From an uncultured Planctomycetia bacterium (GTDB taxonomy: Bacteria; Omnitrophota; Gorgyraeia; 2-02-FULL-51-18; JAGOUK01), in assembly GCA_964430735.1 (NCBI GenBank), contig CAYSFB010000001.1:124082-188081 (forward strand): 64,000 nucleotides of DNA, read 5' to 3'. The translations under genes were made by a program, and so were the position numbers. Positions within the stretch are counted from its first letter, which is position 1, and every line of letters begins with the position of its first letter. Positions 1-27,392 of the stretch are shown piece by piece. The notes beneath the pieces were generated by a model. That model saw only the letters and a program-made list of their open reading frames with translations, was not told the DNA's origin and searched no databases.

Positions 1-64
1 TGTGGATCTTATCCCCTTCGTTATATACGGGGATCAGGATCTGAAGCTCGGGGACGGTGGCCAT
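1..64 (-). CDS. GT2 glycosyltransferase (5' partial; only the first 21 codons lie in the window)
   Basis: ATG at 64-62 on the minus strand translates to MATVPELQILIPVYNEGDKIH. The ILIPVYNE motif is the classic GT2 N-terminus. The ORF runs off the window start. Confidence 0.5.
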   Translation of the reverse strand, partial: MATVPELQILIPVYNEGDKIH

Positions 65-90
65 GCTGCGGGCGTTGGATGCGCAGCCGG

Positions 91-1389
91 TTACCGGACG
101 ATGCGCGGTTCGGGCAGCGGGATGATGAACCCGCCCTTATAACCTTTTTCCCGAAGCTTGGGGATGAGCTCATCCGCAATATGCCACGAGAACAGCAGCG
201 CGTAATCAGGCGGATCGCTAAAAAGCTTCGCTTCGTCTTCAACCGGGATCAGCGTGCCCGGCATGTACTTGCCGGTCTTGTAGGAACCCGCGATCTCAAG
301 CACCGAAGCGATGATACCGTCGTCGAGGCCCGTGTAATGCACGAGCGTGCTCGCGCGCGACGGAGCGCCGATCCCGTAGATCCGGCCGCCCTTTTCGATG
401 ACCGGCGACAGGAGCGCCAGAAGCTTGAGCTTCGACTCGATTACGCGGCGCTTAAAGTCCGCCAGCGCACGATCCTTGATTCCCATGGCCGATTCAGCCG
501 CCAAGAGCGTCCGCACCGAATCACGGACCGGGAACGTGCCTTTGCGGGCCGCGTAAACGCGGACTGAGCCGCCGTGCGTCGGAATTTCTTTGGCGTGGAT
601 GATCTCGAGACCCTGAGATTCGAGGAGGTGCTGAAGACTGGTGAGCGAGTAGTAGCGCAAGTGCTCGTGATAGATCGTGTCGTATTGAAGCGTGCGGATG
701 AGCGCCGGCAGATAATGCGATTCGGAAATGAAGATCCCCTTCGGATCCAGCAGACCGACAATGTTTCGCACCACTTCGCCGACATGTTCGATATGGGCGA
801 ATACATTGGTCGCGGTGATGATGCGCGCTTTGCCGTGCTCGCGTTCGCACTGCGCGGCCGATGCCGCGTTAAAAAAGCTCATGATGGACGTGATGCCGCG
901 CTCTTGGGCCAGCTTAGCCATGAGCGTCGGCTCGATCCCGCAAACGCGGTTGCCGGCGTTCTTGAAGTTCGAGAGCAGCGTGCCGTCGTTGGACCCGATG
1001 TCGACGACCAGGTCCTTGGATTCGATGGGATAAAGCGCCGCCACTTCGCGCTGCATTTCGGCGAAGTTTTCGCGCAAGATACGGGTCGTGCCGCTGGTGT
1101 ACGGATACTCCGGCGGGAACAGGATCGCGGGATCGACGACGAGGCCCAACTGGACCAGCGCGCAGGTCTTGCACTGCAACAGTTCCGCCGGATAAGAGAC
1201 TTCTTCCTGCGGACGCGAACCGATCGGGCGCATGTGATTGACGGGCGGCAGGCCGCCCAAAAAAAGGATGGATTCGAGGTTGTTTCCGCCGCAGACCTGA
1301 CAGCGGTCAACGGGAATGCTCGTGCCGGTGCCGGCGGTGCGGCGCATCGTCGTTTCAGAATGCCGGGGATCGAGCGTCGAGGGGGTCAT
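91..1389 (-). CDS. NDP-hexose C-methyltransferase (TylC3-like, class I SAM methyltransferase with N-terminal Zn-ribbon)
   Basis: 432 aa. The N-terminus has a CxxC...CxxC zinc-binding motif (CQVCGG...CKTCAL). A SAM-MTase core follows (VVDIGSNDG) and then a C-methyltransferase C-terminal domain. The start overlaps the upstream stop as ATGA. Confidence 0.8.
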   Translation of the reverse strand: MTPSTLDPRHSETTMRRTAGTGTSIPVDRCQVCGGNNLESILFLGGLPPVNHMRPIGSRPQEEVSYPAELLQCKTCALVQLGLVVDPAILFPPEYPYTSGTTRILRENFAEMQREVAALYPIESKDLVVDIGSNDGTLLSNFKNAGNRVCGIEPTLMAKLAQERGITSIMSFFNAASAAQCEREHGKARIITATNVFAHIEHVGEVVRNIVGLLDPKGIFISESHYLPALIRTLQYDTIYHEHLRYYSLTSLQHLLESQGLEIIHAKEIPTHGGSVRVYAARKGTFPVRDSVRTLLAAESAMGIKDRALADFKRRVIESKLKLLALLSPVIEKGGRIYGIGAPSRASTLVHYTGLDDGIIASVLEIAGSYKTGKYMPGTLIPVEDEAKLFSDPPDYALLFSWHIADELIPKLREKGYKGGFIIPLPEPRIVR

Positions 1390-2357
1390 GCGTTCTCCTT
1401 AGCGTATGTGGCGTACCAGCGGGCCAGGACAGGAAGTCCGGCAGCCAGCGGGATGCGCGGATCAAAACCCAGAGCGGACATTTTACGGATATCCGGACAA
1501 CGGCGCAACGTTCCGCCTTTGGCGCCGGGCTGAGGAAGCAGACGGATTTTACGGCCAAAAAAATCACCCACCAGCCGCGCAGCGTCGGCGATCCTGACCT
1601 CTTCGCGTGTACCGATGTGATAGATTCCCAAGTGCTCGCCTTTATCCAGCAGAATAGCCAGGCCGTCCGCAAAATCACGGATGTCGATGAATGCCCGGGT
1701 CTCTTCGCCTGTCCCCTGGATCGGAAACTCGATCTCGCCCGCGCCGCGCTCTGCGAGCGCCTTCATCCGCAGGACAAATTGCGGGAGCACATGCTCGTTG
1801 CCCATGTCCGGACCGTACACATTGTGCGGACGAAAGATCAGGACGCGCTTCATAAAACGACCCGCCTGATGCAGGGCCATCATCTCGCTGATCATCTTGC
1901 CGGCGCCGTAGGAATACCGCGGGTTGAGCGGATCAGGAATCACAAGCGGAACCGCTTCCGACGTCGGAACTTCCGGAGGGGTCTGATAGACCTCGGAGCT
2001 GGAAGCGAGCACAAGCTCCGGCGTCCCGTGCCGGCGCGCGGCGTCGATCACGTTTACCATCCCCTTCACACCGACTTCGAGAACCAGATCCGGCTTGGTG
2101 TAAAAAAATTCAGTTCCATTCACGAACGCCAAATGCAGAATGCTGTCCACGCCTTTGACGGCAGCCGCCACATCCTCGGTCTGACGCACGTCGCCGCGCA
2201 CGAACTCGACCCGGTCCTGCACGTCTTCCAATCGTCTCGGCCGGCCCCGGGACAGATCGTCGAGCACGCGGACCGAGTGGCCGTCTTTGAGCAGCCGCTT
2301 CACAACGGCCGAGCCGATGAAGCCGGACCCGCCGGTCACCAGATATTTTTTAGCCAC
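1386..2357 (-). CDS. NAD-dependent sugar epimerase/dehydratase (SDR family)
   Basis: 323 aa. Rossmann motif VTGGSGFIGS and a YxxxK catalytic motif (YSYGAGK). Confidence 0.8.
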   Translation of the reverse strand: MAKKYLVTGGSGFIGSAVVKRLLKDGHSVRVLDDLSRGRPRRLEDVQDRVEFVRGDVRQTEDVAAAVKGVDSILHLAFVNGTEFFYTKPDLVLEVGVKGMVNVIDAARRHGTPELVLASSSEVYQTPPEVPTSEAVPLVIPDPLNPRYSYGAGKMISEMMALHQAGRFMKRVLIFRPHNVYGPDMGNEHVLPQFVLRMKALAERGAGEIEFPIQGTGEETRAFIDIRDFADGLAILLDKGEHLGIYHIGTREEVRIADAARLVGDFFGRKIRLLPQPGAKGGTLRRCPDIRKMSALGFDPRIPLAAGLPVLARWYATYAKENA

Positions 2358-3384
2358 AAAGCACCCACTTTTTCATTTTGTCCGCTTGCCGTGCTGCCTC
2401 GATCAAGCGTTGCGCACGGGCGCCTTCGGGGAACCCCGGGCGACACTGACCGCGGCCGCGGATGGCGGCGGCCCAACGGCCCATCACTTCCGCCGCAGGC
2501 GCAATCCGCCCGTCTTCGTTCCGGACTGGTCCTTTCAGGACGATTTTTTCGATCTTGCCGCTGGAAAGATGGCGCGTGAGCGTAAAGGCTGACGCATAAT
2601 CGGACCCGCGGTTCTCAAGTACGATCCGTCCGCCGCTGCCGATTAATGCGACCTGATGAATCGCCTCCCCGGGAGAATGCGTCGTGACGACGGCCGAGGC
2701 AGCGACACCCGTCTTGGATTCCGCCCAGATCGCCGCGCCCGTTTCGCCCTTGATGCGCTTCAAGCCCTGCGCCCGGGTTAACCGGCAGGCGAGTTTGCGA
2801 AGGGACCCGGCCCAGAATTCCATATAGTTGAAGCTGTGCGAAACAAAGTTGTTCAACACGCCGCCGCCTGACTTCGGATCCGTCTTCCACGAATGAATGT
2901 CATGCTTCACGGCGTAGGTCTCGACATTCCAGACGATCTGCAATTCGCGAAGCACGCCGATCCCTCCCTGATCCAAGAGAAGCTTAGCCGCCTTCCATGC
3001 CGCGATTTCCGGAAATTCAAAGTCCACGGCTGTGACAATGCGCCGCTTGGACGCGAGCGCTGCGAGCGCGTCGGCTTCCCGGGCGGATGGGGCGAGCGGT
3101 TTTTCGCAAAAAATGGGCTTGCCGAGCCGGAGCGCCAGCTGCGCAGCAAGCGCCTGTTCGCGTGGTGGAAGCGCCGTCACTACCGCGTCAATCTGCGGTG
3201 ATTCGATGAGCGCCTTCCAACCGGTGAACGCATTCGGGATACTGAGCCGCAGGGCGGCGGCGCGGGCTTTGTCGGAATGAGCGGATGCGATGGCCGCGAT
3301 GCGGACGCCCGGAATGCGGCGCAGCGCCGGAACCAGCACCCGCTCGCCAAAACCCAGACCGGCCAATCCGACGGCGAGCGTCAA
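2350..3384 (-). CDS. Gfo/Idh/MocA family oxidoreductase (WbpB-like sugar 3-dehydrogenase candidate)
   Basis: 344 aa. N-terminal NAD-binding fold (VGLAGLGFGERV) and the EKP motif (FCEKPLA) of the Gfo/Idh/MocA family. It lies directly downstream of a WbpA-like dehydrogenase. Confidence 0.75.
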   Translation of the reverse strand: MTLAVGLAGLGFGERVLVPALRRIPGVRIAAIASAHSDKARAAALRLSIPNAFTGWKALIESPQIDAVVTALPPREQALAAQLALRLGKPIFCEKPLAPSAREADALAALASKRRIVTAVDFEFPEIAAWKAAKLLLDQGGIGVLRELQIVWNVETYAVKHDIHSWKTDPKSGGGVLNNFVSHSFNYMEFWAGSLRKLACRLTRAQGLKRIKGETGAAIWAESKTGVAASAVVTTHSPGEAIHQVALIGSGGRIVLENRGSDYASAFTLTRHLSSGKIEKIVLKGPVRNEDGRIAPAAEVMGRWAAAIRGRGQCRPGFPEGARAQRLIEAARQADKMKKWVLCG

Positions 3385-4625
3385 ATACGGACTCCCCGTC
3401 CAAAGAAGTTCCAGATATCGACGACGGGTTTTTTGGGTCCGGTGTGGAGGTTTTTATAAGCGGCGTGCGGCACGCACAGGATCAGCAGGTCGCTGCGGCG
3501 GATAACTTCCTTGATGGGGAGAAGCTGGCGGTCGGTTGTTACATGCGGATCCGTTGTGAGCACGGCTTTGGCGTGGAACTCGAGGACTTTTTTGAGCTTG
3601 TAGCTCAACGACGCACGCACATCATCGCTATTGGACTTGAAGGCCATGCCAAGCAATCCGACGGTCAGATCCTTGAGCTTGAATTTTTTCTCGATCTGAC
3701 CGACGAGATAAAGAACGAGCCCTTCGTTGATCGTCATCGCAGAATGCCCCAGACTGAATTGGTTGTCCGAAAACGCAGCGAGCTGCATCGTGTCTTTCAG
3801 GAGGCAGGGGCCGGCCGCCAAACCCGCGCCCGGCAGATCGCGCAGGCGCCCGTAATTCTGCTTCATCCCCTTGAGCACGCGGTCGTAATCCACGCCGGCG
3901 GAATTCGCGATCATGAAGAATTGATTGCTCGCCGCGAACTGGATGTACCGGTACGCGTTGGAAAAAAGCTTCGCAAATTCAGCCTCCAGCGGCGCCAGTT
4001 CCACGGTCTCGGGAGCGATGCGGCCGAAGAGCTTCGAAGCCGCCAGCCGGGCCTGAGGCGTCATGCCGCTCACGATCTGCGGAAGCCGCTGGACTTCGTC
4101 GATGGCATGGCCTTGCACGACCCGCTCCGGACAAAAGGCGACCTGCACCTTCTTGCCGTTTTTCTTGAGGTAATGATCCAGCCACTCCGTCGTGCCGGGA
4201 TAGACCGTAGAGCGCAGGACGATGAGCTGACCGTTGCGCAAATACGGCAGAAGCCGGTCGATGCAGATTTTCATAACTTTGGTGTCGGGATTCAAGAACT
4301 CGTCGACCGGTGTCCCGATGGTGATCACGACAACCGAAGCGGATGCGATGAGGGACGGGTCTGAGGTCAGCTCCAAGCGGCCGGACGCAAGCGCAGAGCG
4401 CAGATATTGTTCAGCGCCCTCTTCCATGAACGGAACTTCCCCGCTTCGGATCGTATCGAGGGTTTTTTCGTTGATGTCGTAGACGAGGACGCGCTGACCC
4501 TTGGATGCAAAAACGAGTGCCAGCGGCAGACCGACATGGCCGGCGCCTCCGACAATGCAGATGTCCGTCCGGGTGGACCCGGAAACACGCGGCTTGGGCT
4601 GGGGTTTGGAATGAGAGCGGGTCAT
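3381..4625 (-). CDS. Nucleotide-sugar 6-dehydrogenase (UDP-GlcNAc/UDP-glucose dehydrogenase family, WbpA/TviB-like)
   Basis: 414 aa. N-terminal GxGxxG motif (IVGGAGHVGL) and a conserved catalytic Cys region (GPCLLKD). ATGA overlap with the next gene. Confidence 0.8.
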   Translation of the reverse strand: MTRSHSKPQPKPRVSGSTRTDICIVGGAGHVGLPLALVFASKGQRVLVYDINEKTLDTIRSGEVPFMEEGAEQYLRSALASGRLELTSDPSLIASASVVVITIGTPVDEFLNPDTKVMKICIDRLLPYLRNGQLIVLRSTVYPGTTEWLDHYLKKNGKKVQVAFCPERVVQGHAIDEVQRLPQIVSGMTPQARLAASKLFGRIAPETVELAPLEAEFAKLFSNAYRYIQFAASNQFFMIANSAGVDYDRVLKGMKQNYGRLRDLPGAGLAAGPCLLKDTMQLAAFSDNQFSLGHSAMTINEGLVLYLVGQIEKKFKLKDLTVGLLGMAFKSNSDDVRASLSYKLKKVLEFHAKAVLTTDPHVTTDRQLLPIKEVIRRSDLLILCVPHAAYKNLHTGPKKPVVDIWNFFGRGVRI

Positions 4626-4645
4626 GATTTAAAGGCGGTATTTTA

Positions 4646-5194
4646 TCAGCTCTTGGGGCGATGCACCATGCCAAAACCCGTCAGCGCGAGCGCCGCCACG
4701 TTGAGCGCATGATCGAATCGCCCGGGCCGAATGAGACGGCGTAGCTGATCGGCGTTCGCCAATACGCATTCGATGCCGGCCTCAGGCCCGGCCCCCGGAA
4801 CGGGCCGGCAGTCCAACGCTTCATAAACCCAAAGCCGGTTCATCATGCGGCCGGTGTCCGGAATCAAGACACCGACCTTCCTCAGACTGGAACAGCGGTA
4901 ACCGGTTTCTTCGAAGAGTTCTTTGCGAGCCGTGGCTGCGGGAGAATAGCCTTTATCAACCGTACCGCTGGGCAGCTCCAGCGTCACGCGGTCCGGGGCC
5001 GGGCGGAATTGACGCACCAGAATGTACCGTCCCTGGCTGTCGCGGGCAACGACCGAAACATAGTCCGGTGCTGTCAGCGCATAGTAAGGGTGTTTTTCGC
5101 CTTGAACCTTGCGGGCCTTGAGCTCAAACCAAGGGGTCCGGAACGCGGTCTGCGTCCGGGTGATGCGTTTGCGAATCAAGCCTTCCGCCCCCAA
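4646..5194 (-). CDS. NUDIX hydrolase (nucleotide-sugar/ADP-ribose pyrophosphatase type)
   Basis: 182 aa. Nudix box RKELFEETGY is present. Confidence 0.75.
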   Translation of the reverse strand: MGAEGLIRKRITRTQTAFRTPWFELKARKVQGEKHPYYALTAPDYVSVVARDSQGRYILVRQFRPAPDRVTLELPSGTVDKGYSPAATARKELFEETGYRCSSLRKVGVLIPDTGRMMNRLWVYEALDCRPVPGAGPEAGIECVLANADQLRRLIRPGRFDHALNVAALALTGFGMVHRPKS

Positions 5195-5919
5195 TACAAC
5201 CTCACCAGCGCAAAATACCCCCGTATCGTCCTGAAGTTGTTGTTCTTGCTGGGGGTCGGCTTCTGGTCATAGCGCAGAACAAAAGGCACCTCGGTGATCC
5301 GGGCGCCGAGCATCCGCAGCCGGACCAGGACTTCCGGCGCCGCGACGAAGCCCAAATGAGGCAGCTGGATCACGTTTCCAGCGAACCGTTCGTGCGCCTT
5401 CTTGAGGATGGACGCGCGGTACACGCGGTAATTGCAGCTGTACTCCCGCAGGCCCTTCACCGGAAAAAAAAGCTTCAAAAAAATGCCTGCGCCCATGCTC
5501 ATCAGCGTCTTGAACGCCGAAAGCCCTTCCTGGCCGCCGCCTTCCTGGAACCGGGACAACGCCACGACGTCATACCCCTCTTTGAGCTTCTCGATCGCCG
5601 CCAGCGCGAAGCGCGGTTCATGCGTGTCGTCGCAGTCCATCGACATCACCACGTCGTCGTCGGCCGCTGTCTTCGCCAAATAGGCCAGGCCGTTGATCAT
5701 CGTGCGGCCGAGTCCCGAATTGACCTCGTGGCCGCGCACATCGACTGGATAGCGGTGCGCGAGTTCCTGCGCAATCTGCTTCGTGCGGTCGGAGCTGCCG
5801 TCATCAAACACCAAAACCCGGTAATCCAGGCCGGCGGCTTTAAAAACGGCGTCGATCTTGCCGATCAGGATTGGAAGCGCGATCTCTTCGTTGTAAGCGG
5901 GTAAAAAAACTCGGATCAT
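5176..5919 (-). CDS. GT2 glycosyltransferase, polyprenyl-phosphate sugar synthase-like (DPM1/ArnC type)
   Basis: 247 aa, start taken at [13 protein letters not shown] strong RBS (AAGGAGG) lies upstream of this ATG. A DxD-type motif is present (MDCDDTHE). Confidence 0.8.
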   Translation of the reverse strand: MIRVFLPAYNEEIALPILIGKIDAVFKAAGLDYRVLVFDDGSSDRTKQIAQELAHRYPVDVRGHEVNSGLGRTMINGLAYLAKTAADDDVVMSMDCDDTHEPRFALAAIEKLKEGYDVVALSRFQEGGGQEGLSAFKTLMSMGAGIFLKLFFPVKGLREYSCNYRVYRASILKKAHERFAGNVIQLPHLGFVAAPEVLVRLRMLGARITEVPFVLRYDQKPTPSKNNNFRTIRGYFALVRLYWGRKA

Positions 5920-6461
5920 CGGCGAACCTCCTTGGACCACATAACGGTTTTTTCCTCTATATTACTTTGCGTCCGTCCGGCCTCTGCCAAGAGAACTGCC
6001 ATCCATGTTTCAAGATTGAGCCCGCGCAGACGATCCGCAACCGCAACAAGCACCGCAGCCGGAACCAAGAGGCACAACGGCTGCGATTCAGCTCTTAGCC
6101 CCAACATCCTCCGAACTACTCGGCGTACACGCAAAAGAACGGATCCGGCAAACGACAGACCGCGCGCCAAGCCGCGGTCGTCCGAACCGATGCCGGCCCG
6201 CCAACTCCCGGCCTCCAAAGCTTCCGTCAGCCGCACAAGCTCCTTGGGTGGAACGGAACCCGCCGCGTCCCACAACACGATCCGCGCACCTTCCGTCCGG
6301 ACCGCCCACTCCAAAACGGACTGCGCATCCCAGACCGGACCGGCTTCCGAAGACCAAACCCTCAGATCCTGACCGCAAGTGCTGCGGTAACGTTCGAAAC
6401 GTTCTCTGCAACCGGCGGCCGCTCCGGAGCATTGCGAGTCAAATATGACGACTCCGGTCAT
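5916..6461 (-). CDS. Hypothetical protein (possible GT-A/DUF2064-like transferase partner of the adjacent GT2)
   Basis: 181 aa, starting at [10 protein letters not shown]. Its ATG overlaps the upstream gene's stop as ATGA, and its own stop overlaps the GT2 start. I recognise no clear motif. Confidence 0.45.
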
Positions 6462-7462
6462 CTGCCTCCAGGCGCCCGGAAGTACGCGATGGTTTTTCGT
6501 AAACCTTCTTCCAGTCCGACCTTCGGCCGCCACTGGAGCAACCGATTGGCCAGCGTGATGTCCGGACAGCGCCGCTTGGGGTCGTCGACCGGCAAAGGCT
6601 TATAGACCAGCTTGGAACGGGACCCCGTCAGCCGGATCAAGATCTTGGCGAGATCGACCATGTCGTATTCGGAAGGGTTGCCGAGGTTGACGGGGCCGGT
6701 CGTGTCCGCGCGGTGCAGACGGAAAAATCCCTCGACCAGGTCGTCCACATAGCAAAAACTGCGGGTCTGCGTCCCCTTGCCGTACACCGTGAGCGGCTGG
6801 CCCTTGAGCGCCTGGTCGATGAAGTTCGGGATCACCCGCCCGTCCCGGGCGCGCATCCGCGGACCGTACGTATTAAAGATCCGACCGATCTTGACGTCGA
6901 CCCCGTGCTCACGATGGTAAGCGAGCGTGATCGCCTCGGAAAAACGCTTCGCCTCGTCATAAACGCCGCGCGGACCGATCGGGTTGACGTTGCCCCAATA
7001 CGTTTCCGGCTGAGGATGAACGGCGGGATCGCCGTACACTTCCGAAGTCGACGCCATTACAAACACCGAACGCTTGGCCTTCGCCAGACCCAGCGCGTTG
7101 TGCGTCCCGAGGGATCCGACCTTGAGCGTCTTGATCGGATGTTTGAGGTAATCCGGCGGGCTGGCCGGCGAAGCAAAATGAAAAACCGCCTGAACGTCTC
7201 CGGCGACGCGAAACGGTTTGGAGACGTCATGCTTCATCAGAGAAAAACGGGAATTTTTTGCATAAGGCTTGATATTCGCGGGGTTGCCGGTCAAGAAGTT
7301 GTCGACGCAAACCACGCGCCGGCCTTCGGCCAGGAAGCGCTCGCACAGGTGCGAGCCGATGAAGCCGGCGCCGCCGGTGATTACAACCGTTCGGGCTTGT
7401 TGGCTTCGAACCACTGAAGGGTCTCCTTGAGGCCTTGATCGAGCTTCGTTTTGGGGCGCCAT
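6458..7462 (-). CDS. UDP-glucuronate decarboxylase (UDP-xylose synthase, SDR family)
   Basis: Rossmann motif [13 protein letters not shown], the DNFLTG motif, and TSEVYGDP...YDEAKR. Very similar to UXS/ArnA-decarboxylase type enzymes. The start is uncertain; the ORF overlaps the upstream epimerase gene. Confidence 0.8.
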
Positions 7463-8334
7463 CCCAGATCCTTCCGCGCGGCCGAGATATCCGCCCACGT
7501 CCTCATCGGGTCCCCTTTGCGCCGGGGTCCAAAGATCGGGTTGGGACGGACACCCATGTGCTTCGCGATCGTATTCAGAATATCGAGGATGGACGTGTCT
7601 CCTCCGCCGGCGATGTTGAACGATTTTCCGGCCGAGCGCGGCGCCTCAAACGCCGCCAGGAGATTGGCCTCCACCACGTCCTTCACGTACGTGAAGTCAC
7701 GGGACTGCCGGCCGTTTCCGTCGATGACCGGACGCTCGCCGCGGCGCAGCTTGTCGATGAACGCGGGCACCACGAGCGAATACTGCGACTCCGGATTCTG
7801 ACGGGGTCCATAGACGTTAAAGTAGCGCAACGCCACGGTGTGCAGACCGTAAATCGCGTGATACGCGTGGCAATAATTTTCGCCGCAAAGCTTCGAGACC
7901 CCGTAAGGCGACATCGGGCGCAGCGAAGCGCTTTCTTTCTGGGGAAACGCCTGGGCTCCGCCGTAAACCGAGCTGGACGAAGCGTAGACGAAGCGTTTGA
8001 CGCCGCTTTTGACCGCGGAGTTCAAGAGATTCAAGGTTCCGGTTGTATTGGCCTCGTGGGACATCAGCGGGTTGTTCACCGACTTGGGCACCGACCGGAT
8101 CGCGGCCTGATGGATCACGACTTCGACCCCTTTCATCACGCGGTCCGTCATCTTCGCGTCGCGGATGTCGCCCCGCACGAGCCGGATCTTTCCGGCAAAT
8201 GGCTTCAGGTTGCGCTCAAGTCCGGCCGAAAAATTGTCGATCACCGTGACGGGTTTTCCCCGGCGGACAAGCTCTTCGACGATGTTCGAACCGATGCAGC
8301 CGGCGCCGCCGGTAACCAGGATTTGCTTCTTCAT
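7381..8334 (-). CDS. NAD-dependent nucleotide-sugar 4-epimerase (GalE/WbpP/UDP-GlcA epimerase family)
   Basis: 317 aa. Rossmann motif [12 protein letters not shown] and catalytic YGVSK. Confidence 0.8.
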
Positions 8335-8342
8335 GGGGGTCC

Positions 8343-9647
8343 TTATAAACGGTGGATGTGTGCGCCGCTCAGAGAGCGGGTGGCGTTGCGCGTGTCGAGG
8401 ATGGTTTTTTTGGCGGCGGCGACTTTTTTGTAATCCACCGCTTCGTGATCGGTCAAAATTGTGATCAGGTCGAACGCGCGAAGCCGTTCGGCGGTCAACG
8501 CGACCGAGCGAAGGGCGCGGCCGGCCGCTTTGAGCTGCGGAACATGCGGATCGTGATACTCCACGCGGGCGCCCCTGGATATCAACTCCTCAATGATCGT
8601 GAGCGACGGAGATTCCCGGGTGTCGCGCACGTTCTTCTTGTAGGAAGCTCCGAGGACGAGAATGCGCGAGCCCCGGATCGCGCGCGACCGGTCGTTCAGC
8701 AGGCGCGAAATCCGGTCGATGATGACATGCGGCATACCGTCGTTGATCGTCTGGGCAAGCTCGATGAGGCGCGGCTCATATCCGTGCAGGCGGACCTTCC
8801 AGGCCAGGTACATCGAATCGATGTTGATGCAGTGGCCTCCGATGCCAGGACCGGGGTAAAACGGCATGAACCCGAAGGGCTTGGTCGACGCGGCGTCGAT
8901 CACTTCCCAAACATCGATGCCGAGCGTGTCGCAGATCATGGCCATTTCGTTGATGAGCGCGATGTTGATCGAGCGGAAGGTGTTCTCGAGAAGCTTGACC
9001 ATTTCCGCGGCGCGGGTGGACGAGACCGGAATCACGCGGTCAAAGACGGAACCGTAGAGCGCCTTGGTCAATTCGAGTGATCCTGCGTCGATGCCGCTGA
9101 CCACTTTGGGGATCTGATGAAGCTTGAAGCGCTTGTTCGCGGGGTCAACCCGCTCCGGCGAAAAGCCGAGAAAAATGTCGCGGCCGACCTTGAGCCCGGT
9201 CGCCGCTTCCAGACGCGGAGCGATCGCCTCGTCAGTCGTGCCGGGGTAAGTGGTGCTTTCGAGCACGACGAGCTGGCCGGGCTTGAGCTTGGGAGCCATC
9301 CGGCTCACCGCGTCGAGAATGAAGGAGAGGTCGGGATCCTTGGTCTTGCTCAGAGGGGTCGGAACACAGATGATGAGACAGTCCGCTTCGCGGACCAGCT
9401 CGTACCCGCCGGCCTTGAAGCGGCCGGTCTTGGTCGCAGCGGCCAATTCCGCGTCGGTGATGTCTCCGATGTAGGATTTGTTCTCTTTGATCTTGTGAAG
9501 TCGGTCGGCTGAGACTTCGATGCCGACAACCTTGAAGCCGCGTTCGACAAACGCCAGCGCCAGGGGCAGGCCGACATAGCCGAGTCCGATGATCCCGATC
9601 GTCGCTTTGCGGTTATCGATTCGCTGATGCAGCGTTGCTTTTAACAT
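8343..9647 (-). CDS. UDP-N-acetyl-D-hexosamine 6-dehydrogenase (WecC/WbpA family nucleotide-sugar dehydrogenase)
   Basis: 434 aa. N-terminal motif IGIIGLGYVGLPLA and catalytic region GPGIGGHC. Confidence 0.8.
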   Translation of the reverse strand: MLKATLHQRIDNRKATIGIIGLGYVGLPLALAFVERGFKVVGIEVSADRLHKIKENKSYIGDITDAELAAATKTGRFKAGGYELVREADCLIICVPTPLSKTKDPDLSFILDAVSRMAPKLKPGQLVVLESTTYPGTTDEAIAPRLEAATGLKVGRDIFLGFSPERVDPANKRFKLHQIPKVVSGIDAGSLELTKALYGSVFDRVIPVSSTRAAEMVKLLENTFRSINIALINEMAMICDTLGIDVWEVIDAASTKPFGFMPFYPGPGIGGHCINIDSMYLAWKVRLHGYEPRLIELAQTINDGMPHVIIDRISRLLNDRSRAIRGSRILVLGASYKKNVRDTRESPSLTIIEELISRGARVEYHDPHVPQLKAAGRALRSVALTAERLRAFDLITILTDHEAVDYKKVAAAKKTILDTRNATRSLSGAHIHRL

Positions 9648-10539
9648 GCGTTCTCCATTCCGCCAAAAGGTCTTTCATCGACTGTTCAAAAGAAATTTTG
9701 GGAAGCCAACCGGTCCGTTTTTTAAACTTGGAACCGTCCCCCACGATGACGGGAAGGTCGCTGGGACGGACCCGGTCGCCGTCCGGAACGATCCTAAAAT
9801 CGACGGTCGACTCCCGGCGCAGCAGATCCAGGATGCCTCCCACCGCAATACCTTCGCCCGAGCAGATATTATACACATCGCCCGGCTCGCCTTTTTCGAG
9901 CGCCAGCCACAGGGCCGACGCCGCGTCGCGCACATCCGTAAAATCGCGGATCACCGCCAGATTACCCACATGTACAACCGGATCCTGCAATCCCGCTTCG
10001 ATCCGGGCGATCTGCCGGGCGAAGGCGCTGGTGACAAAGGCTTCGCTGCGGCCGGGGCCGGTCTGATTGAACAATCTCAGCCGAACGATTTCCAGACCGT
10101 AATTCTTGAAGTACTGCAGACCCATCAAATCCTGCGCGACCTTCGACACGGCGTACGGGCTCACCGGTTTGAGCGGTGTTTCTTCCGTGATCGGCACATC
10201 CTTGGAGTCGATCATTCCGTATTCCTCACTCGATCCGGCAACCGCGATTCTGGGCCGGAGTCCGAGAGCGCGAACCGCCTCAAAAAGATTCACCTGGGCC
10301 GAAATGTTCGTCTGCAGGGTGTCGAGCGGATTGAGCCAGGACTGGCCGATATGCGACTTGGCCGCCAGATGAAAAATCCGGTCCGGCCGCAGCTGCTCCA
10401 GCCCGCTTTTGACCGCTGCCGCGTCCAGCAAGTCGACCGTTTCACGCGCCCATCCCGTGACCTCGGCGCCCTGCGCCGCGCATGCCGAAGCCAGGTGCCG
10501 GCCCATGAACCCCGCGGAACCGGTGATTAGAATTTTCAT
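9613..10539 (-). CDS. NAD-dependent epimerase/dehydratase (GDP-sugar dehydratase/reductase-like SDR)
   Basis: 308 aa, start taken at MKILITGSAGFMG. YxxxK motif YAVSK. The start overlaps the rmlD stop as ATGA. Confidence 0.75.
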   Translation of the reverse strand: MKILITGSAGFMGRHLASACAAQGAEVTGWARETVDLLDAAAVKSGLEQLRPDRIFHLAAKSHIGQSWLNPLDTLQTNISAQVNLFEAVRALGLRPRIAVAGSSEEYGMIDSKDVPITEETPLKPVSPYAVSKVAQDLMGLQYFKNYGLEIVRLRLFNQTGPGRSEAFVTSAFARQIARIEAGLQDPVVHVGNLAVIRDFTDVRDAASALWLALEKGEPGDVYNICSGEGIAVGGILDLLRRESTVDFRIVPDGDRVRPSDLPVIVGDGSKFKKRTGWLPKISFEQSMKDLLAEWRTHVKSNAASANR

Positions 10540-11444
10540 GCTTTGGCCCCCGCCAAGTCCACGTAACGGTCCAATGCATCCTCCCAAGGCCTCAAAACAA
10601 TGCCCAGCTCCGAGGCGATGCGCTCAGTGGTCAGCACCGTATGCTTCGGGCGGACGGCAATCCAGCCCGGAAGATCGCGCCCCGAAAGGCGTGGCAGATC
10701 AGCCGACCGCTTGAGTCGGCGGGCGATCCGTGCCGCCATGCCGTACCGTGTCGTGCCGCCTTTGTTCGCGCAATGAAAAATTCGGTTGGCACGGCGCCCG
10801 GAAGCCCGGGCCTGCAGCAAGAACTTACCGACCACTGCCCACAATGCATCCGCCAGGTCCGTCGCGTAGCAAGGCGACGCCGTCTGACCGTCCACGGCGC
10901 CAGGCGTCTCGCCGCGGCGCAACTTCTCCAGAATCCCGTTTACGAAGTCCATCCGGGTCCCGCCGAAGATCCAGGTCGAGCGAATGACGGCCGAATATTC
11001 CGGCAGCGTGAGCGCGTAGTGCTCGCCTTCGAGCTTGGTAATCCCATAGATCGAGCAAGGCCCGGTCGCATCCTCTTCGGAGTATGCGCCGCCTTTGGTT
11101 CCGTCAAAAACATAGTCCGTGCTCACATGCAGCAGCGCGGCGCCTGACAAGCGGCAGGCTTCAGCCAAACGCCTGACCCCCAGCGCGTTCACCTGCCGGG
11201 CGGCCTCCGGCTGCGCCTCACACACGTCGACGCCCGCCTCCGCCGCGCAATTGATCACGGCCGCGAACGGCCCGTTGCGTTTAAAAAAATCTTTGACGCT
11301 GTCATCCGAAGCGATGTCCAGACGAAGTGTGTCAGCGGCTTTGCGGGAAGCGGTGACCGTCTCGTAGCCGGACGCCGGGGAAGCGGAGCGCACCGCCGAG
11401 CCGAGCATGCCGGCGCCGACGATCAAGATCCGGTCGAGAGCCAT
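10536..11444 (-). CDS. rmlD: dTDP-4-dehydrorhamnose reductase
   Basis: 302 aa, start at MALDRILIVGAGMLGS. The core resembles RmlD (HVSTDYVFDG...YGITKLEGE). It lies immediately downstream of rmlB. Confidence 0.8.
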   Translation of the reverse strand: MALDRILIVGAGMLGSAVRSASPASGYETVTASRKAADTLRLDIASDDSVKDFFKRNGPFAAVINCAAEAGVDVCEAQPEAARQVNALGVRRLAEACRLSGAALLHVSTDYVFDGTKGGAYSEEDATGPCSIYGITKLEGEHYALTLPEYSAVIRSTWIFGGTRMDFVNGILEKLRRGETPGAVDGQTASPCYATDLADALWAVVGKFLLQARASGRRANRIFHCANKGGTTRYGMAARIARRLKRSADLPRLSGRDLPGWIAVRPKHTVLTTERIASELGIVLRPWEDALDRYVDLAGAKA

Positions 11445-11445
11445 C

Positions 11446-12486
11446 TCAGGCCCGCGTCCCGGCCGCGGCGCGCGTTTCCTCGAGCTGGCGGAGATAATTC
11501 TGATAGTCGGCGCTCTTGCGCCGGATGCCGTCCAACCAATCCAGATGGCTTCGGTACCAGGCGGCCGTTTCGGAAAAAGCGCTGTCAAACGAACGGCCCG
11601 GCTTCCATCCGAGCGAACGGATCTTGGAGTCGTCCATCGCGTACCGGCGGTCGTGCCCGAGGCGGTCGGCGACGCGCTGGATCAGTTCCCCCTCGCGGCC
11701 CTCCAGACCCAGCTCCTTCAGAATCCGGCGCGTGAGCGCCAGATTGGTCAGATGAAACCCGCCGCTCACGTTATAAACTTCCCCCGCCGCACCCTTGCGC
11801 CAGGCGAAGTGCACCGCGTCGCAGTGATCGTCCACATGCAGCCAGTCGCGCTCCTGGGAACCGTCGCCGTACAGCGGAAGCGGCTTGCCGGCCAGCGCGT
11901 TCAGAATAAAAAGCGGAATGACTTTTTCGGGATACTGCCAGGGACCGTAGGTATTGGATCCGCGCGTGACGACCACCGGCAGGCCGGTGTGGCGGAACGC
12001 GTTGAGTGCCAGATATTCGGCCGCGGCTTTCGAGACGGAATAAGGATTGGTCGGGTTCAGGGGATCGGTCTCGCGGAACGCCCCCTCGGCGCGGGAGCCG
12101 TACACTTCGTCCGTCGAGACATGGACGAACTTTTTGACGCCGGCAGCCTTGGCCTCCGTCAACAGCGACTGGGTTCCGGCCGCGTTGGACTCAAAAAAAT
12201 CCCGGCAATCGAGCAGGCTGCGGTCCACATGACTCTCCGCCGCAAAATGAAACACTGCGTCTGCACCGGCCATTTTTCCGGCAAAAAGATCGCGGCGGGC
12301 GATATCGATCTGCTCGAAGCGATAACGGGAACCGTATTGCTCGGCCAAACCACCCAGACGCGTGAGGTCCCCCGAATAACTCAACTTGTCCCAGACGATG
12401 ACCGACGCTGCCGGCTCGCGCTCCAGCAGCAGCCTGACGAACCTCGAGCCGATGAAGCCCGCTCCGCCCGTAACGATCAGCTTCAT
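11446..12486 (-). CDS. rmlB: dTDP-glucose 4,6-dehydratase
   Basis: 346 aa. N-terminus [14 protein letters not shown], then HVSTDEVYG and YSVSKAAAE. ATGA overlap with rmlA. Confidence 0.88.
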   Translation of the reverse strand: MKLIVTGGAGFIGSRFVRLLLEREPAASVIVWDKLSYSGDLTRLGGLAEQYGSRYRFEQIDIARRDLFAGKMAGADAVFHFAAESHVDRSLLDCRDFFESNAAGTQSLLTEAKAAGVKKFVHVSTDEVYGSRAEGAFRETDPLNPTNPYSVSKAAAEYLALNAFRHTGLPVVVTRGSNTYGPWQYPEKVIPLFILNALAGKPLPLYGDGSQERDWLHVDDHCDAVHFAWRKGAAGEVYNVSGGFHLTNLALTRRILKELGLEGREGELIQRVADRLGHDRRYAMDDSKIRSLGWKPGRSFDSAFSETAAWYRSHLDWLDGIRRKSADYQNYLRQLEETRAAAGTRA

Positions 12487-13208
12487 TTCCGTGTTCTCGC
12501 CTTCTGGATCAACTGCGAAGCCGAAAACAGCGACTCAAACGTTCCGCAATCGGTCCACCAGCCGTCGACCACGCCGTAGCGCAGGCTTTTTTGGGCGATG
12601 TAGGCGTTGTTCACGTCCGTGATCTCGAGCTCGCCGCGGCGCGAAGGCTTGAGATTCCGGATGAAGTCAAAGACGCGCGCGTCATAAAAATAAAGACCCG
12701 TCACCGCGAGCGTGGATTCGGGTTTAACGGGCTTCTCGACGATCTTCTGAATGCGGCCGGATTTGACGGTCGCGACGCCGAAGCGTTGCGGGTTGCGGAC
12801 GGACTTGAGTCCGAGAAGCGCGCCGTGCGGATTGCGGCGGAAGTCGTCCGCGAACGGCCGGACCGACTTTTCGAACAGATTGTCCCCCAGCATCACCGCG
12901 ATCGGATCCTTCTGAGTGATGTGCTCGACCAGCGACAGGGCCTGAGCGATCCCGCCCTCGCCTTCCTGGTACACATAGTGCAACGTCTTGAGACCCATCT
13001 TGTGGCCGTTGCCCAAAAGCTGCATGAATTCGCCCGAATGGTTGCCGCCCGTCACCAGCACCACGTCCCGGATCCCGGCCTCAACCATCGCCTCGATCGG
13101 ATAAAAAATCATCGGCCGGTCATACACGGGCAGCAAGTGTTTGTTGGTGATCCGGGTCAGCGGATGGAGCCGGGTCCCGAGGCCTCCGGCCAAAATAACG
13201 CCCTTCAT
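12483..13208 (-). CDS. rmlA: Glucose-1-phosphate thymidylyltransferase (short-form sugar nucleotidyltransferase)
   Basis: 241 aa. N-terminal motif KGVILAGGLGTRLHPLT characteristic of NDP-sugar pyrophosphorylases. Confidence 0.8.
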   Translation of the reverse strand: MKGVILAGGLGTRLHPLTRITNKHLLPVYDRPMIFYPIEAMVEAGIRDVVLVTGGNHSGEFMQLLGNGHKMGLKTLHYVYQEGEGGIAQALSLVEHITQKDPIAVMLGDNLFEKSVRPFADDFRRNPHGALLGLKSVRNPQRFGVATVKSGRIQKIVEKPVKPESTLAVTGLYFYDARVFDFIRNLKPSRRGELEITDVNNAYIAQKSLRYGVVDGWWTDCGTFESLFSASQLIQKARTRK

Positions 13209-19129: not shown

Positions 19130-19131
19130 GG

Positions 19132-20559: not shown

Positions 20560-20560
20560 C

Positions 20561-21664
<1,104 letters not shown>

Positions 21665-21671
21665 GGAGGGC

Positions 21672-22610: not shown

Positions 22611-22725
22611 TTTTTATAATCGGAGGATATTAGCATAAGACCCTCCGTGCTTCAAGAAAACCTTAAGTCTTTTTACTTGGATTTTTATCGGCTAACAGAC
22701 GCGTATCCACCGATCGGTCCGCATG

Positions 22726-27372: not shown

Positions 27373-27392
27373 GTTTCGCTATTGCTCCTTGG

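Follow-up and report, generated by a model that had tools for sequence, protein, structure and literature searches.

The stretch of DNA analysed here (the window, 64,000 nucleotides) carries near its left edge, on the minus strand, four genes coding for a nucleotide-sugar dehydrogenase (DH), a Gfo/Idh/MocA oxidoreductase (Gfo), an extended SDR and a methyltransferase (MT). All four ORFs were found in an ORF check of the window sequence, and an independent gene caller gave the same placement on contig L085, an exact match to the window. The features are as follows.

1-64, minus strand: GT2b, first 21 codons (MATVPELQILIPVYNEGDKIH...) of a 244-aa GT2 glycosyltransferase gene that crosses the left window edge
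91-1389, minus strand: MT, SAM-dependent sugar C-methyltransferase of the TylC3/TcaB9/KijD1/MtmC family, 432 aa
1386-2357, minus strand: SDR, extended SDR, 323 aa; predicted NAD+-dependent C4-oxidase/decarboxylase
2350-3384, minus strand: Gfo, Gfo/Idh/MocA oxidoreductase, 344 aa; predicted ketoreductase acting on a C-methylated 4-keto sugar
3381-4625, minus strand: DH, divergent nucleotide-sugar 6-dehydrogenase, 414 aa; predicted maker of an NDP-uronic acid
4646-5194, minus strand: NUDIX hydrolase (Pfam PF00293), 182 aa; accessory cassette member
5176-5919, minus strand: GT2a, polyprenyl-phosphate glycosyltransferase-like (Pfam PF00535), 247 aa; first gene of the packed run

As read off the sequence, DH and Gfo overlap by 4 nt (TTGA), Gfo and SDR by 8 nt (GTGGCTAA), and SDR and MT by 4 nt (ATGA, with AAGGAG upstream). 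The coordinates, these overlaps and the independent gene calls bear out the sequence-only reading of four overlapping, coupled genes. Rather than a self-contained unit, the four genes form the core of a longer operon. The NUDIX and GT2a genes, which overlap by 19 nt, are tightly packed immediately upstream of DH, and GT2b begins at window position 64 and continues past the left window edge. The start of GT2a at 5919 was taken from the gene call on L085 (5471-6214). The genes lying off the left edge were read on the same contig, where the complete GT2b gene occupies 11326-12060; its translated N-terminus matches the GT2 that follows MT in locus L002. The order of the operon is GT2a, NUDIX, DH, Gfo, SDR, MT, GT2b, SGNH hydrolase and PMT_2 GT-C.

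Relatives of MT, 55-84% identical to it, were counted in at least 587 species-level genomes, among them those of CPR bacteria and DPANN archaea. The linked cassette genes are found together again in dozens of loci spread over more than 20 phyla, an arrangement far from chance. Locus counts below refer to the 56 loci with enough flanking sequence, except for PMT_2-like proteins, which were counted over 85 loci. In the literature we found no paper on the MT cassette and no characterised pathway of this composition, in agreement with the sequence-only reading.

Conserved enzymes of the cassette

The MT contains a zinc-binding domain (PF08421), a SAM domain (PF13489) and a C-methyltransferase C-terminal domain (PF08484), with C30, C33, C73 and C76 as the zinc-binding cysteines. 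Its best solved matches in the PDB, all full length, are MtmC (4rv9, 8.9e-67), TcaB9 (3ndi, 2.6e-66) and KijD1 (5t64, 8.9e-63). The NDP-hexose C-methyltransferase architecture assigned to it earlier is confirmed by these domains and matches; the three-domain arrangement, the four-Cys zinc site and the active-site Tyr, His and Glu are those of TcaB9, TylC3, KijD1, MtmC and EvaC. Across the MT subfamily, the four Cys, YPY, H199 and Y240-x-E242-H243 do not vary, and the positions that match the active site of TcaB9 are conserved. MT relatives in cassettes are 55-95% identical to it; the solved TcaB9-type members are far less similar, and the best plasmid-borne relatives (Legionella, Streptomyces, Sinorhizobium) are only 35-39% identical. 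Judged from these alignments, MT sits in a distinct, highly conserved subfamily. TcaB9, MtmC and KijD1 methylate the carbon adjoining a 4-keto group, and the chemistry of MT is presumed to be the same, i.e., methylation alpha to the 4-keto group. The known context of such enzymes is the 3-C-methyl-6-deoxyhexose pathways (mycarose, tetronitrose, virenose, cereose), in which dTDP-, CDP- or GDP-6-deoxyhexoses are formed with a 4,6-dehydratase. The partners of MT are instead a 6-dehydrogenase, an SDR with the UXS signature and then lipid-carrier glycosyltransferases.

The DH has all three UDPG_MGDP_dh domains (Pfam) and scored 264 bits against TIGR03026, over the cut-off of 189.8, with all substrate-specific models far under theirs. 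Its best PDB matches are the UDP-ManNAc dehydrogenase 4r16 and Cap5O (about 1e-43), the UDP-Glc dehydrogenase 3vtf (6e-37) and CalS8 (2e-35). The catalytic K, N and GPCxxKD (Cys, Lys, Asn, Asp) are kept in 58 orthologues, so the enzyme would make a carboxylate, a product unsuitable as substrate for a 4,6-dehydratase. A DH gene is present in 48 of the 56 loci, usually translationally coupled; in the other eight, none was found within 7 kb of MT. The earlier assignment as a WbpA-like UDP-HexNAc dehydrogenase holds for the 6-dehydrogenase function, given the catalytic residues, but not for the subtype, as DH forms a deep separate branch, nor for UDP-HexNAc as the substrate. It is 28% identical to the product of window gene 8343-9647, a much better WbpA/TviB-like dehydrogenase, which lies with a TviC/WbpP-like epimerase at 7381-9647.

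The SDR gene (Pfam Epimerase / GDP_Man_Dehyd) lies directly upstream of MT and occurs in 55 of the 56 loci, usually abutting MT. Its invariant residues S120-S121-E122, Y150/K154 and R221 align with T118-S119-E120, Y147/K151 and R277 of hUXS1. The protein has the extended fold of UXS, the ArnA C-terminal domain, RsU4kpxs, CalS9 and EvdS6, and shares with UDP-glucuronate decarboxylases the Ser/Thr-Tyr-Lys triad and the Ser-Glu plus Arg signature (PMC3438964). In that group the signature corresponds to S119, E120 and R277 of hUXS1, with Ser and Thr instead in UDP-GlcA 4-epimerases (PMC3438964). The conserved Arg has been used for recognising decarboxylases, while SDR subclasses are hard to assign from sequence (PMC10338323). 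Linkage to a 6-dehydrogenase is also common to both, and CalS8 is among the solved relatives of DH. The motif here is SSE and not TDE, which is carried by RmlB-type dehydratases. GMD-type dehydratases carry TSE, so that the Ser-Glu pair is not confined to decarboxylases, and many extended SDRs have an Arg where hUXS1 has R277. The signature is therefore consistent with decarboxylation and not diagnostic of it. The overall similarity is ambiguous, and the SDR does not fall clearly within a decarboxylase clade. Against the family profile, the best solved match was the GDP-sugar 4-epimerase 8rdg (173 bits), ahead of UXS1 (154 bits) and RmlB-type dehydratases (139-148 bits). The SDR is 28% identical to the window's own UXS, scored 38 bits with the ArnA C-terminal domain, and is under every curated NCBIfam cut-off, with the UXS/ArnA and dehydratase models far under.

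The Gfo slot and the accessory genes

The Gfo has N- and C-terminal GFO_IDH_MocA domains (PF01408 / PF22725 / PF02894, Pfam), and its EKP and sH motifs are kept in 37 orthologues. It had been read as WbpB-like, which was not supported: the match to WbpB (E 1.5e-4) covers residues 83-203 only, whereas generic sugar oxidoreductases (1e-18) and the KijD10 3-ketoreductase (1e-11) matched better, and an archaeal UDP-GlcNAc 3-dehydrogenase model gave 26 bits against a cut-off of 450. In the 56 loci, the Gfo slot holds a Gfo in 27, a C4-type DegT aminotransferase in 12, a short RmlD-like reductase of a 4-ketoreductase family in 10 and none of these in seven; two of them were never seen as separate genes in one locus. 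The slot aminotransferases scored C4 enzymes at the top (GDP-perosamine synthase 235 bits and ArnB 207 bits, vs. 168 bits for WbpE). The 22 loci with a DegT or RmlD-like enzyme have no other oxidase, yet carry the same SDR, whose orthologues are 52-73% identical across all slot types. This indicates that the SDR is the source of the keto group, which the slot enzyme then consumes; the roles proposed from the sequence, in which Gfo oxidises and SDR reduces, are thereby reversed.

The best NCBIfam match of the NUDIX protein is NudE, under the cut-off. Its gene adjoins DH in 22 of the 56 loci, and a role in nucleotide-sugar pool control or clean-up is possible. GT2a best matches ArnC (1.6e-13, under the cut-off). 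It is 23% identical to GT2b and of a different subtype, a gene similar to it precedes DH in L010 only, and its membership of the MT pathway is uncertain. GT2b is predicted from its sequence to be a polyprenyl-phosphate glycosyltransferase; its best NCBIfam matches (PgfS, dolichyl-phosphate hexose transferase, PpgS and AglJ) are without exception enzymes of that type, though all far under their cut-offs. Of the 56 loci, 49 have such a small GT2, and in bacterial loci the GT2 subtype follows the slot enzyme, as expected if the GT2 acts after C4 processing. The PMT_2 GT-C has at least nine hydrophobic segments, and PMT_2-like proteins occur in 34 of the 85 loci, where their genes often come immediately behind that of MT or GT2b. 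With scores under the curated cut-offs, these GT2 and GT-C assignments hold at the family level only.

Proposed pathway and alternative explanations

We propose an Arn-like, lipid-linked pathway with a C-methylation step that makes a methyl-branched sugar, and give this model as a whole an even chance of being correct. The divergent DH would oxidise C6 of a nucleotide hexose (UDP-Glc, UDP-GlcNAc or UDP-ManNAc) to the uronic acid. The SDR with NAD+ would then oxidise C4, and the resulting beta-keto acid would decarboxylate to an NDP-4-keto-pentose, as in ArnA, UXS, CalS9 and EvdS6. Release of NDP-4-keto-pentoses for further tailoring has been described for ArnA, AtmS9, EvdS6 and the CalS8/CalS9 system (PMC10338323). 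The TcaB9-type MT with SAM would C-methylate the carbon beside the 4-keto group; the analogy with all solved relatives points to C3, and C5 is possible. The Gfo would reduce the 4-keto group to give an NDP-C-methyl-pentose, a step that in sibling cassettes would be taken by a C4-type aminotransferase (in some loci accompanied by a formyltransferase) or by the RmlD-like reductase. Finally, the small GT2 would load the sugar onto polyprenyl phosphate, and the downstream PMT_2-family GT-C would move it to an envelope acceptor. The branched-chain uronic-acid sugar suggested earlier is kept in part. A full-length relative of NDP-hexose C-methyltransferases linked to a 6-dehydrogenase makes a branched sugar formed via a uronic acid reasonable, but given the UXS signature of the SDR the acid is probably lost, and the product would be a pentose and not an acidic amino sugar. 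The near-equal UXS1 and RmlB-type scores of the SDR, below that of a 4-epimerase, speak against the Arn-like model. So does the presence in the window of a canonical Ugd and a WbpA-like dehydrogenase, which makes the cassette DH a third. The eight loci with no DH near MT count against it as well, and so do the two CPR fusion loci described below. To our knowledge, the characterised relatives of MT all use 4-keto-6-deoxyhexoses and none uses pentoses.

The last point favours a 6-deoxyhexose route, which we consider unlikely. Here the SDR would be an NDP-hexose 4,6-dehydratase, MT would give a 3-C-methyl-4-keto-6-deoxyhexose and the slot enzyme would process C4. Such a route would parallel the evalose, virenose, cereose and mycarose pathways, with DH supplying another sugar of the same glycan. 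Among NCBIfam models, the SDR does match the LegB 4,6-dehydratase (133 bits) and dTDP-glucose 4,6-dehydratase (114 bits) best, RmlB-type structures score 139-148 bits with its family profile, and RmlD-like reductases and C4 aminotransferases are typical partners of 4,6-dehydratases. However, all dehydratase models are far under their cut-offs, the SSE motif is not that of RmlB, and GMD-type enzymes are absent among the 60 best solved matches of the SDR. Moreover, this route leaves the dedicated, co-evolving DH without a step in the pathway: oxidation at C6 is impossible for a 6-deoxy sugar, and so is 4,6-dehydration for a uronic acid. The single dedicated GT2 of the cassette argues against a second sugar. 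If C4 were oxidised with no decarboxylation, or if DH acted last, the cassette would end in a C-methyl hexuronic acid, and sibling loci in the 4-amino form of this acid; we find this very improbable. As a beta-keto acid, a 4-keto-hexuronate that is released tends to lose CO2, and we know of no pathway in which an NDP-4-keto-hexuronic acid is set free as an intermediate. The 4-epimerase that is the best solved match to the SDR handles a 4-keto intermediate without side reactions, and UDP-GlcA 4-epimerases suppress decarboxylation of the 4-keto-uronate, but the SDR keeps Glu and Arg where these non-decarboxylating enzymes have Ser and Thr (PMC3438964).

The model of the sequence-only reading, in which a WbpA-like DH and a WbpB-like 3-dehydrogenase give a 3-keto uronic acid that MT methylates and the SDR reduces, is in our view quite unlikely. 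The product would be a branched-chain uronic acid, possibly aminated by a distant DegT. The best substrate-specific matches of DH are UDP-ManNAc/HexNAc dehydrogenases, and the Gfo/Idh/MocA family includes the 3-dehydrogenases WbpB and WlbA. In addition, two CPR loci (L061 and L076) have a distant Gfo-like domain fused to an RmlD-like domain, with neither SDR nor DH, so that Gfo-family proteins could form keto groups in some contexts. The WbpA-WbpB-WbpE-WbpD system for UDP-ManNAc3NAcA (Pseudomonas, Bordetella) also has a nucleotide-sugar 6-dehydrogenase adjoining a Gfo/Idh/MocA gene. Against this model, the window Gfo resembles WbpB at the superfamily level only, the slot data point to a Gfo that consumes a keto group, unlike the keto-forming WbpB, the slot aminotransferases are C4-type and not WbpE-type, no linked WbpE or WbpD was found at the cassette, and the window has the better WbpA/TviB-like pair described above. 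As for the DegT at 33198-34316, once seen as a displaced WbpE-like partner, its WbpE-like character stands: it falls in the C3-aminotransferase clade, with C3 enzymes ranked top and a 256-bit match to WbpE. The partnership does not, as the gene lies 29 kb from the MT cassette between miaA and a miaB-like gene, i.e., between tRNA-modification genes, and no DegT was found within 8 kb in any of the 27 Gfo-type loci. That MT is a non-sugar enzyme (polyketide, lipid or small molecule) with an incidental linkage to sugar genes is extremely improbable. Its NCBIfam matches are weak and generic (UbiG, DVU_1556), but the earlier question of a non-sugar methyltransferase is answered on the homology side by the full-length similarity (E about 1e-66) to three solved NDP-sugar C-methyltransferases with conserved sugar-site residues, and the linkage to nucleotide-sugar enzymes is invariant across dozens of phyla.

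The preferred model takes its logic from the Arn (aminoarabinose) system (PmrE/Ugd-ArnA-ArnB-ArnC-ArnT), which modifies lipid A with L-Ara4N and whose order of enzyme classes, namely DH, SDR, C4 enzyme, GT2 and GT-C, is matched by the cassette. An ArnB-like C4 aminotransferase, in some cases together with a formyltransferase, is encoded in sibling cassettes such as L001, L023 and L057; the window cassette handles C4 by the Gfo, with no transaminase. The cassette SDR is stand-alone and distant from the ArnA C-terminal domain, and no equivalents of ArnD or ArnEF were recognised in the cassette. What the cassette adds is the TcaB9-type C-methyltransferase, always paired with the SDR. Since the cassette is also found in CPR bacteria and archaea, groups that lack lipid A, this lipid cannot be its general acceptor. 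Based on these comparisons, it is most likely a conserved, uncharacterised system built from known enzyme classes, in which C-methylation is added to an Arn-like logic.

Organization of the operon

The four open reading frames that the sequence-only reading had described at 91–4625 were recovered as the same genes, with the same coordinates, by an independent gene caller on L085, a public contig that is 100% identical to positions 1–11389 of the window. Every domain named in that reading was confirmed by Pfam, including PF08421, PF13489 and PF08484 in the methyltransferase. The full unit consists of GT2a, NUDIX, DH, Gfo, SDR, MT, GT2b, SGNH and GT-C genes and is truncated by the left edge of the window.

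Genes of the cassette (window positions unless L085 is named)
5176–5919, GT2a, a small GT2, 19-nt overlap with the NUDIX gene
4646–5194, NUDIX hydrolase, immediately upstream of DH, 20 nt from its start
3381–4625, minus strand, DH, nucleotide-sugar dehydrogenase, 414 aa
2350–3384, minus strand, Gfo, Gfo/Idh/MocA oxidoreductase, 344 aa
1386–2357, minus strand, SDR, extended short-chain dehydrogenase, 323 aa
91–1389, minus strand, MT, methyltransferase, 432 aa
64–1, GT2b, a small GT2, first 21 codons; 244 aa in full on L085
L085, after GT2b, SGNH/GDSL hydrolase, 353 aa
L085, after SGNH, PMT_2-family GT-C glycosyltransferase, 541 aa, PF13231, at least 9 hydrophobic segments

The coupled genes overlap by 4 nt (DH/Gfo, TTGA), 8 nt (Gfo/SDR, GTGGCTAA) and 4 nt (SDR/MT, ATGA). 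AAGGAG precedes the start of MT, and GGGGAG that of Gfo. An ORF of 205 aa at 5916–6533 was rejected as a cassette gene; it has no Pfam or NCBIfam match and no gene call on L085, and it is probably spurious. Once it is discounted, a gap of 540 nt (5920–6457) lies between the cassette and the UDP-xylose-synthase-like SDR (UXS) at 6458–7414, and the cassette may thereby be set apart from the unit that contains UXS. A scan of 1–7600 for promoters and terminators gave counts not above those of shuffled sequence, so the operon boundaries were drawn from gene spacing alone. The gap contains, at 6179–6158 on the minus strand, a GC-rich hairpin with a T-rich run after it.

Sugar genes adjoining the cassette, all on the same strand as the cassette
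6458–7414, UXS
7381–8334, TviC/WbpP-like epimerase
8343–9647, WbpA/TviB-like dehydrogenase
9613–10587, GMD/LegB-like SDR
10536–11588, RmlD
11446–12486, RmlB
12483–13208, RmlA-like
13215–14507, canonical Ugd

Beyond the left edge of the window, L085 carries at least two more modules of a predicted polyprenyl-phosphate GT2 plus a GT-C in succession. The gene order at L085:11326–21299 is GT2b, SGNH/GDSL hydrolase, PMT_2 GT-C, a weak GT87-like membrane protein, UDP-GlcNAc 2-epimerase, an ALGX/GDSL protein, another SDR, a small GT2 and PMT_2. On the other side, the genes beyond 14.5 kb are unrelated to the cassette and code for an LptD-like protein, GGDEF/EAL proteins, ABC/Mla transporters, ACC subunits and MiaA. 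The LptD-like protein (14504–17479, 991 aa) has just a weak LptD_2 match of 24.5 bits, and its gene immediately precedes the run of sugar genes. Along with MlaD/MlaE (26494–29026), it points to a diderm envelope. At 17771–24447, c-di-GMP signalling proteins are encoded in a cluster: a GGDEF protein, a second GGDEF protein that also has a GAF domain, and an EAL protein whose GGDEF domain is degenerate. A CHASE2-SpoIIE phosphatase (24503–26473) comes next. The named homologues of AccA (67–69% identity) all belong to Candidatus Omnitrophota, and the best named match of MT is from Omnitrophica; these matches hint weakly that the host is an uncultured bacterium of this phylum or of a neighbouring one.

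The methyltransferase and the spread of the cassette

The fold of every cassette protein is clear from the sequence, although a match in fold would not tell a decarboxylase from a dehydratase or an epimerase. In the case of MT, the Pfam matches (PF08421, 50 bits; PF13489, 70 bits; PF08484, 127 bits) all exceed their cut-offs and give the three-domain architecture of NDP-sugar C-methyltransferases, with an N-terminal zinc-binding domain, a class I SAM-MTase and a C-terminal C-methyltransferase domain. Full-length matches to the solved enzymes MtmC (8.9e-67), TcaB9 (2.6e-66) and KijD1 (8.9e-63) were obtained. Residues C30, C33, C73 and C76 align with the zinc cysteines of TcaB9 and are invariant in the subfamily. 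Likewise, Y95/Y97 (YPY), H199 (AHI), Y240, E242 and H243 match the TcaB9 sugar-site motifs and do not vary among 15 members of the subfamily. The architecture, the four-Cys zinc site and the sugar-site residues are thus shared with the TylC3/TcaB9/KijD1/MtmC group, and MT is, judged by these features, a sugar C-methyltransferase.

The subfamily motifs TATNVFAH and QYDTIYHE were used as patterns to scan 185,579 species-level genomes, and MT relatives that carry them are encoded in at least 587, nearly all of which are uncultured. The best 80 of these at least 587 relatives, almost all from metagenome-assembled genomes, are 55–68% identical to the MT of the window across phyla and both prokaryotic domains, which makes the cassette unusually well conserved. 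Their bacterial hosts belong to Planctomycetota, Chloroflexota, Verrucomicrobiota, Acidobacteriota, Nitrospirota, Proteobacteria, Bacteroidota, Cyanobacteriota, Omnitrophota, Elusimicrobiota, Firmicutes, Actinomycetota and several CPR phyla, and their archaeal hosts to Nano-, Woese-, Aenigm- and Micrarchaeota and to Methanosarcinales/Methanoperedenaceae. A search of a plasmid collection with MT gave no annotated cassette; the relatives that it found, from Legionella, Streptomyces and Sinorhizobium, all stayed below 40% identity.

All ORFs of 85 related loci were searched with the proteins of the window and of sibling loci, and the counts were made on the 56 loci in which the sequence reaches 6 kb or more upstream and 3 kb or more downstream of MT. 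The SDR was found in 55 of the 56 loci, mostly abutting MT, the divergent DH in 48, a small GT2 in 49 and NUDIX in 22; in 8 of the 56, DH is absent within 7 kb of MT. PMT_2-like GT-C proteins are encoded in 34 of the 85 loci, frequently immediately after MT or GT2b. The adjoining, predicted keto-forming SDR is consistent with a predicted SAM-dependent methylation of an NDP-4-keto sugar, and we regard the genes, with high confidence, as a conserved cassette that serves to make a C-methyl-branched sugar.

Two kinds of variation were observed in sibling loci. In two Planctomycetia loci (L033:3165–6229 and L034:5905–8969), DUF362, GT2 and radical SAM/SPASM genes are inserted between GT2b and SDR. 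A second, divergent C-methyltransferase of the same three-domain architecture is found beside or near the first one at L001:11257–12540 and also in L035, L047, L063 and L080, which suggests doubly C-methylated sugars in these organisms.

The variable slot and the predicted reactions

One position of the cassette, occupied by Gfo in the window and termed here the slot, is variable. In the 56 loci it is filled by a Gfo orthologue (27 loci), a DegT aminotransferase (12 loci), a reductase of ~250 aa that matches Pfam RmlD_sub_bind and NCBIfam rmlD (10 loci) or nothing recognisable (7 loci), and no two of these enzymes occur as separate genes in one locus. NCBIfam matches that would class the slot aminotransferases as C4-type were discarded as evidence because the window's own DegT (33198–34316), a member of the C3-aminotransferase clade, matches the same C4 models; NCBIfam apparently has no C3-aminotransferase models. 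The typing was taken from the ranking of PDB structures instead. The slot DegT proteins matched C4 aminotransferases first (GDP-perosamine synthase, 235 bits; ArnB, 207; WbpE, 168), and the reverse order was obtained for the window's DegT (DesV, 319 bits; QdtB, 290; WbpE, 256; ArnB, 136).

The SDR orthologues are 52–73% identical to the SDR of the window whichever slot type is present, RmlD enzymes are 4-ketoreductases, and no other oxidase was found in the DegT-type and RmlD-type loci. On these grounds the SDR would have to make the C4 keto group and the slot enzyme, Gfo included, would use it; we consider this division of labour between SDR and Gfo likely. In bacterial loci the GT2 subtype follows the slot enzyme, in keeping with a GT2 that acts on the completed sugar. 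A different arrangement is seen in two CPR loci (L061:7424–9235, Saccharibacteria, and L076:7385–9229, Jorgensenbacteria), where a fusion protein of ~610 aa with distant Gfo/Idh/MocA-like and RmlD-like domains adjoins GT2b and MT and no SDR or DH is adjacent. The fusion may be an alternative route to make and reduce the keto sugar, so that Gfo-family domains may form the keto group in some versions of the cassette.

The sequence-only reading had likened DH and Gfo to the WbpA/WbpB pair and proposed a C-methylated acidic amino-sugar as the probable product. In such a scheme Gfo would be a WbpB/WlbA-type UDP-GlcNAcA 3-dehydrogenase. Among solved structures, Gfo matched generic sugar oxidoreductases best (1e-18) and the sugar 3-ketoreductase KijD10 at 1e-11. 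WbpB (3oa2) ranked 56th among the solved matches (E 1.5e-4, 24.8 bits, residues 83–203 only), so that membership of Gfo in the WbpB group failed, and the archaeal UDP-GlcNAc 3-dehydrogenase model gave 26 bits (cut-off 450). Neither a WbpE C3 aminotransferase nor a WbpD N-acetyltransferase is linked to the genes in the operon or its L085 extension. The supposed displaced WbpE-like partner, the window's only DegT, is 29 kb distant and flanked by miaA and a miaB-like gene, and a DegT within 8 kb was found in none of the 27 Gfo-type loci. As the slot analysis also contradicts it, the WbpA/WbpB model fails. The surroundings of this DegT, miaA (32240–33235) and a miaB/rimO-like radical SAM gene (34313–35668), are an unusual site for a sugar aminotransferase.

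An assignment of the SDR class by overall similarity to solved structures was dropped because epimerase, decarboxylase and dehydratase scored within 25 bits of one another. The family profile gave 173 bits with the GDP-sugar 4-epimerase 8rdg (PMC12171764), 154 with UXS1, 139–148 with RmlB-type enzymes and 92 with the ArnA-like 3slg. In the PDB profile and the family models, the SDR was not closest to known decarboxylases and did not pass their curated models (PRK11908, 50 bits, cut-off 294; ArnA, 38 bits, cut-off 777). It shares the triad and the Ser/Glu/Arg signature of the UXS/ArnA group: S120-S121-E122, Y150/K154 and R221 align with T118-S119-E120, Y147/K151 and R277 of hUXS1 and are invariant in 24 orthologues. 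Ser119, Glu120 and Arg277 are hallmarks of the UXS group, and Ser and Thr are found instead in UDP-GlcA 4-epimerases (PMC3438964). The 8rdg-type epimerase has Thr and Lys where the SDR has Glu and Arg, and the SDR lacks the RmlB-type Asp of the TDE motif. Ser-Glu also occurs in GMD-type dehydratases and an Arg at the position equivalent to R221 is common among extended SDRs; the residues therefore favour a decarboxylase without being diagnostic. The conserved Arg has been a criterion for identifying decarboxylases, among them CalS9, AviE2 and EvdS6, a 4-keto-pentose is released by ArnA, CalS9, AtmS9 and RsU4kpxs, and SDR subclasses are difficult to assign by sequence (PMC10338323).

DH passed the general nucleotide-sugar dehydrogenase model of NCBIfam and no substrate-specific one (TviB, 83 bits, cut-off 592; UDP-ManNAc dehydrogenases, 160–169 bits, cut-offs 459–750). 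The gene at 8343–9647, with 229 bits on the TviB model, is a better WbpA/TviB-type candidate. A comparison with the window's Ugd (26% identity) and WbpA-like gene (28%) was abandoned as uninformative about the DH substrate. Since its orthologues retain the catalytic Lys, Asn and the Cys/Asp of GPCxxKD, DH is predicted to make a uronic acid from a nucleotide hexose. It is from the linkage to this catalytically intact DH that the oxidative decarboxylation of an NDP-hexuronic acid is predicted. A uronic acid oxidised at C4 is a beta-keto acid and should decarboxylate, and we lean slightly towards an SDR that decarboxylates its substrate to a pentose.

A rival to a decarboxylating SDR is the classical route, where the SDR would be a 4,6-dehydratase and the product a 3-C-methyl-6-deoxyhexose. 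It agrees with what the relatives of MT are known to act on and with the RmlD and DegT partners, but DH, present in 48 of the 56 loci, is left without a role. Retention of the carboxylate in the final sugar is less likely, being disfavoured both by the chemistry and by the SDR signature. The decarboxylation pathway has a difficulty of its own: the window encodes two other 6-dehydrogenases, WbpA/TviB-like and canonical Ugd, and the need for a third has no explanation.

Probable lipid-linked delivery and meaning of the cassette

GT2b gave weak NCBIfam matches to PgfS, dolichyl-phosphate hexose transferase, PpgS and AglJ, and its orthologue in the sibling locus L002 also to ArnC, with 37–52 bits against cut-offs of 325–529. 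No other kind of GT2 outscored the polyprenyl-phosphate glycosyltransferases, all matches being below cut-off, and no transmembrane helix was predicted in the GT2b of this organism. An ArnT/PMT_2-family GT-C, the 541-aa PF13231 protein on L085, is encoded alongside the cassette. We think that delivery via polyprenyl phosphate and a GT-C enzyme is probable.

The components of the cassette all come from known enzyme families, and in its overall plan the cassette follows Arn-type and GtrB/GT-C systems. An Arn-like mechanism is the best-supported one. The Arn system uses the C4 aminotransferase ArnB and a formyltransferase, whereas the operon of the window has neither; the deformylase ArnD and the flippase ArnE/F are also absent among its listed genes. 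An ArnB-like DegT occurs in the 12 DegT-type loci of the 56, only 2–3 of which have a formyltransferase. In the proposed pathway, DH would convert an NDP-hexose to an NDP-hexuronic acid, from which the SDR would produce an NDP-4-keto-pentose. MT would then methylate C3, the site expected from all its solved relatives, although C5 is possible, and Gfo would reduce C4. GT2b would put the sugar onto polyprenyl phosphate, and the PMT_2 GT-C would move it to an envelope acceptor. We give the whole chain, from DH to GT-C, an even chance. Being small, soluble proteins, the enzymes lend themselves to reconstitution of the pathway in vitro.

Branched-chain (C-methyl) sugars are mostly associated with antibiotic biosynthesis and a few O-antigens, where they are 6-deoxyhexoses on dTDP, CDP and GDP scaffolds. 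To our knowledge, no C-methyl pentoses of such origin have been described on prokaryotic cell surfaces. Full-text literature searches, with incomplete coverage, found nothing on this gene combination or on a C-methyl pentose made in this way, and earlier work is possible. We tentatively propose, at somewhat less than even probability, an undescribed, widespread glycosylation in which a uronic-acid-derived C-methyl pentose (4-amino-4-deoxy in siblings) is carried by polyprenyl phosphate and transferred by a GT-C to the envelope. Its range would take in over 20 bacterial phyla as well as CPR bacteria and archaea of the DPANN and methanogen-related groups, with horizontal transfer as the probable means of spread.

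If the sugar is an ordinary 3-C-methyl-6-deoxyhexose, the cassette is one more case of a known pathway type. The interest lies in the "antibiotic-type" C-methyltransferase in lipid-linked surface glycosylation, in the conservation of the cassette and in its spread over both prokaryotic domains. If the proposal is true, a TcaB9-type C-methyltransferase was recruited into an Arn-like lipid-carrier/GT-C route, and the product would be a common yet unnoticed surface modification made from a new nucleotide sugar. It would also give a function to many genes whose sole annotation is "class I SAM-dependent methyltransferase" or "NAD-dependent epimerase".
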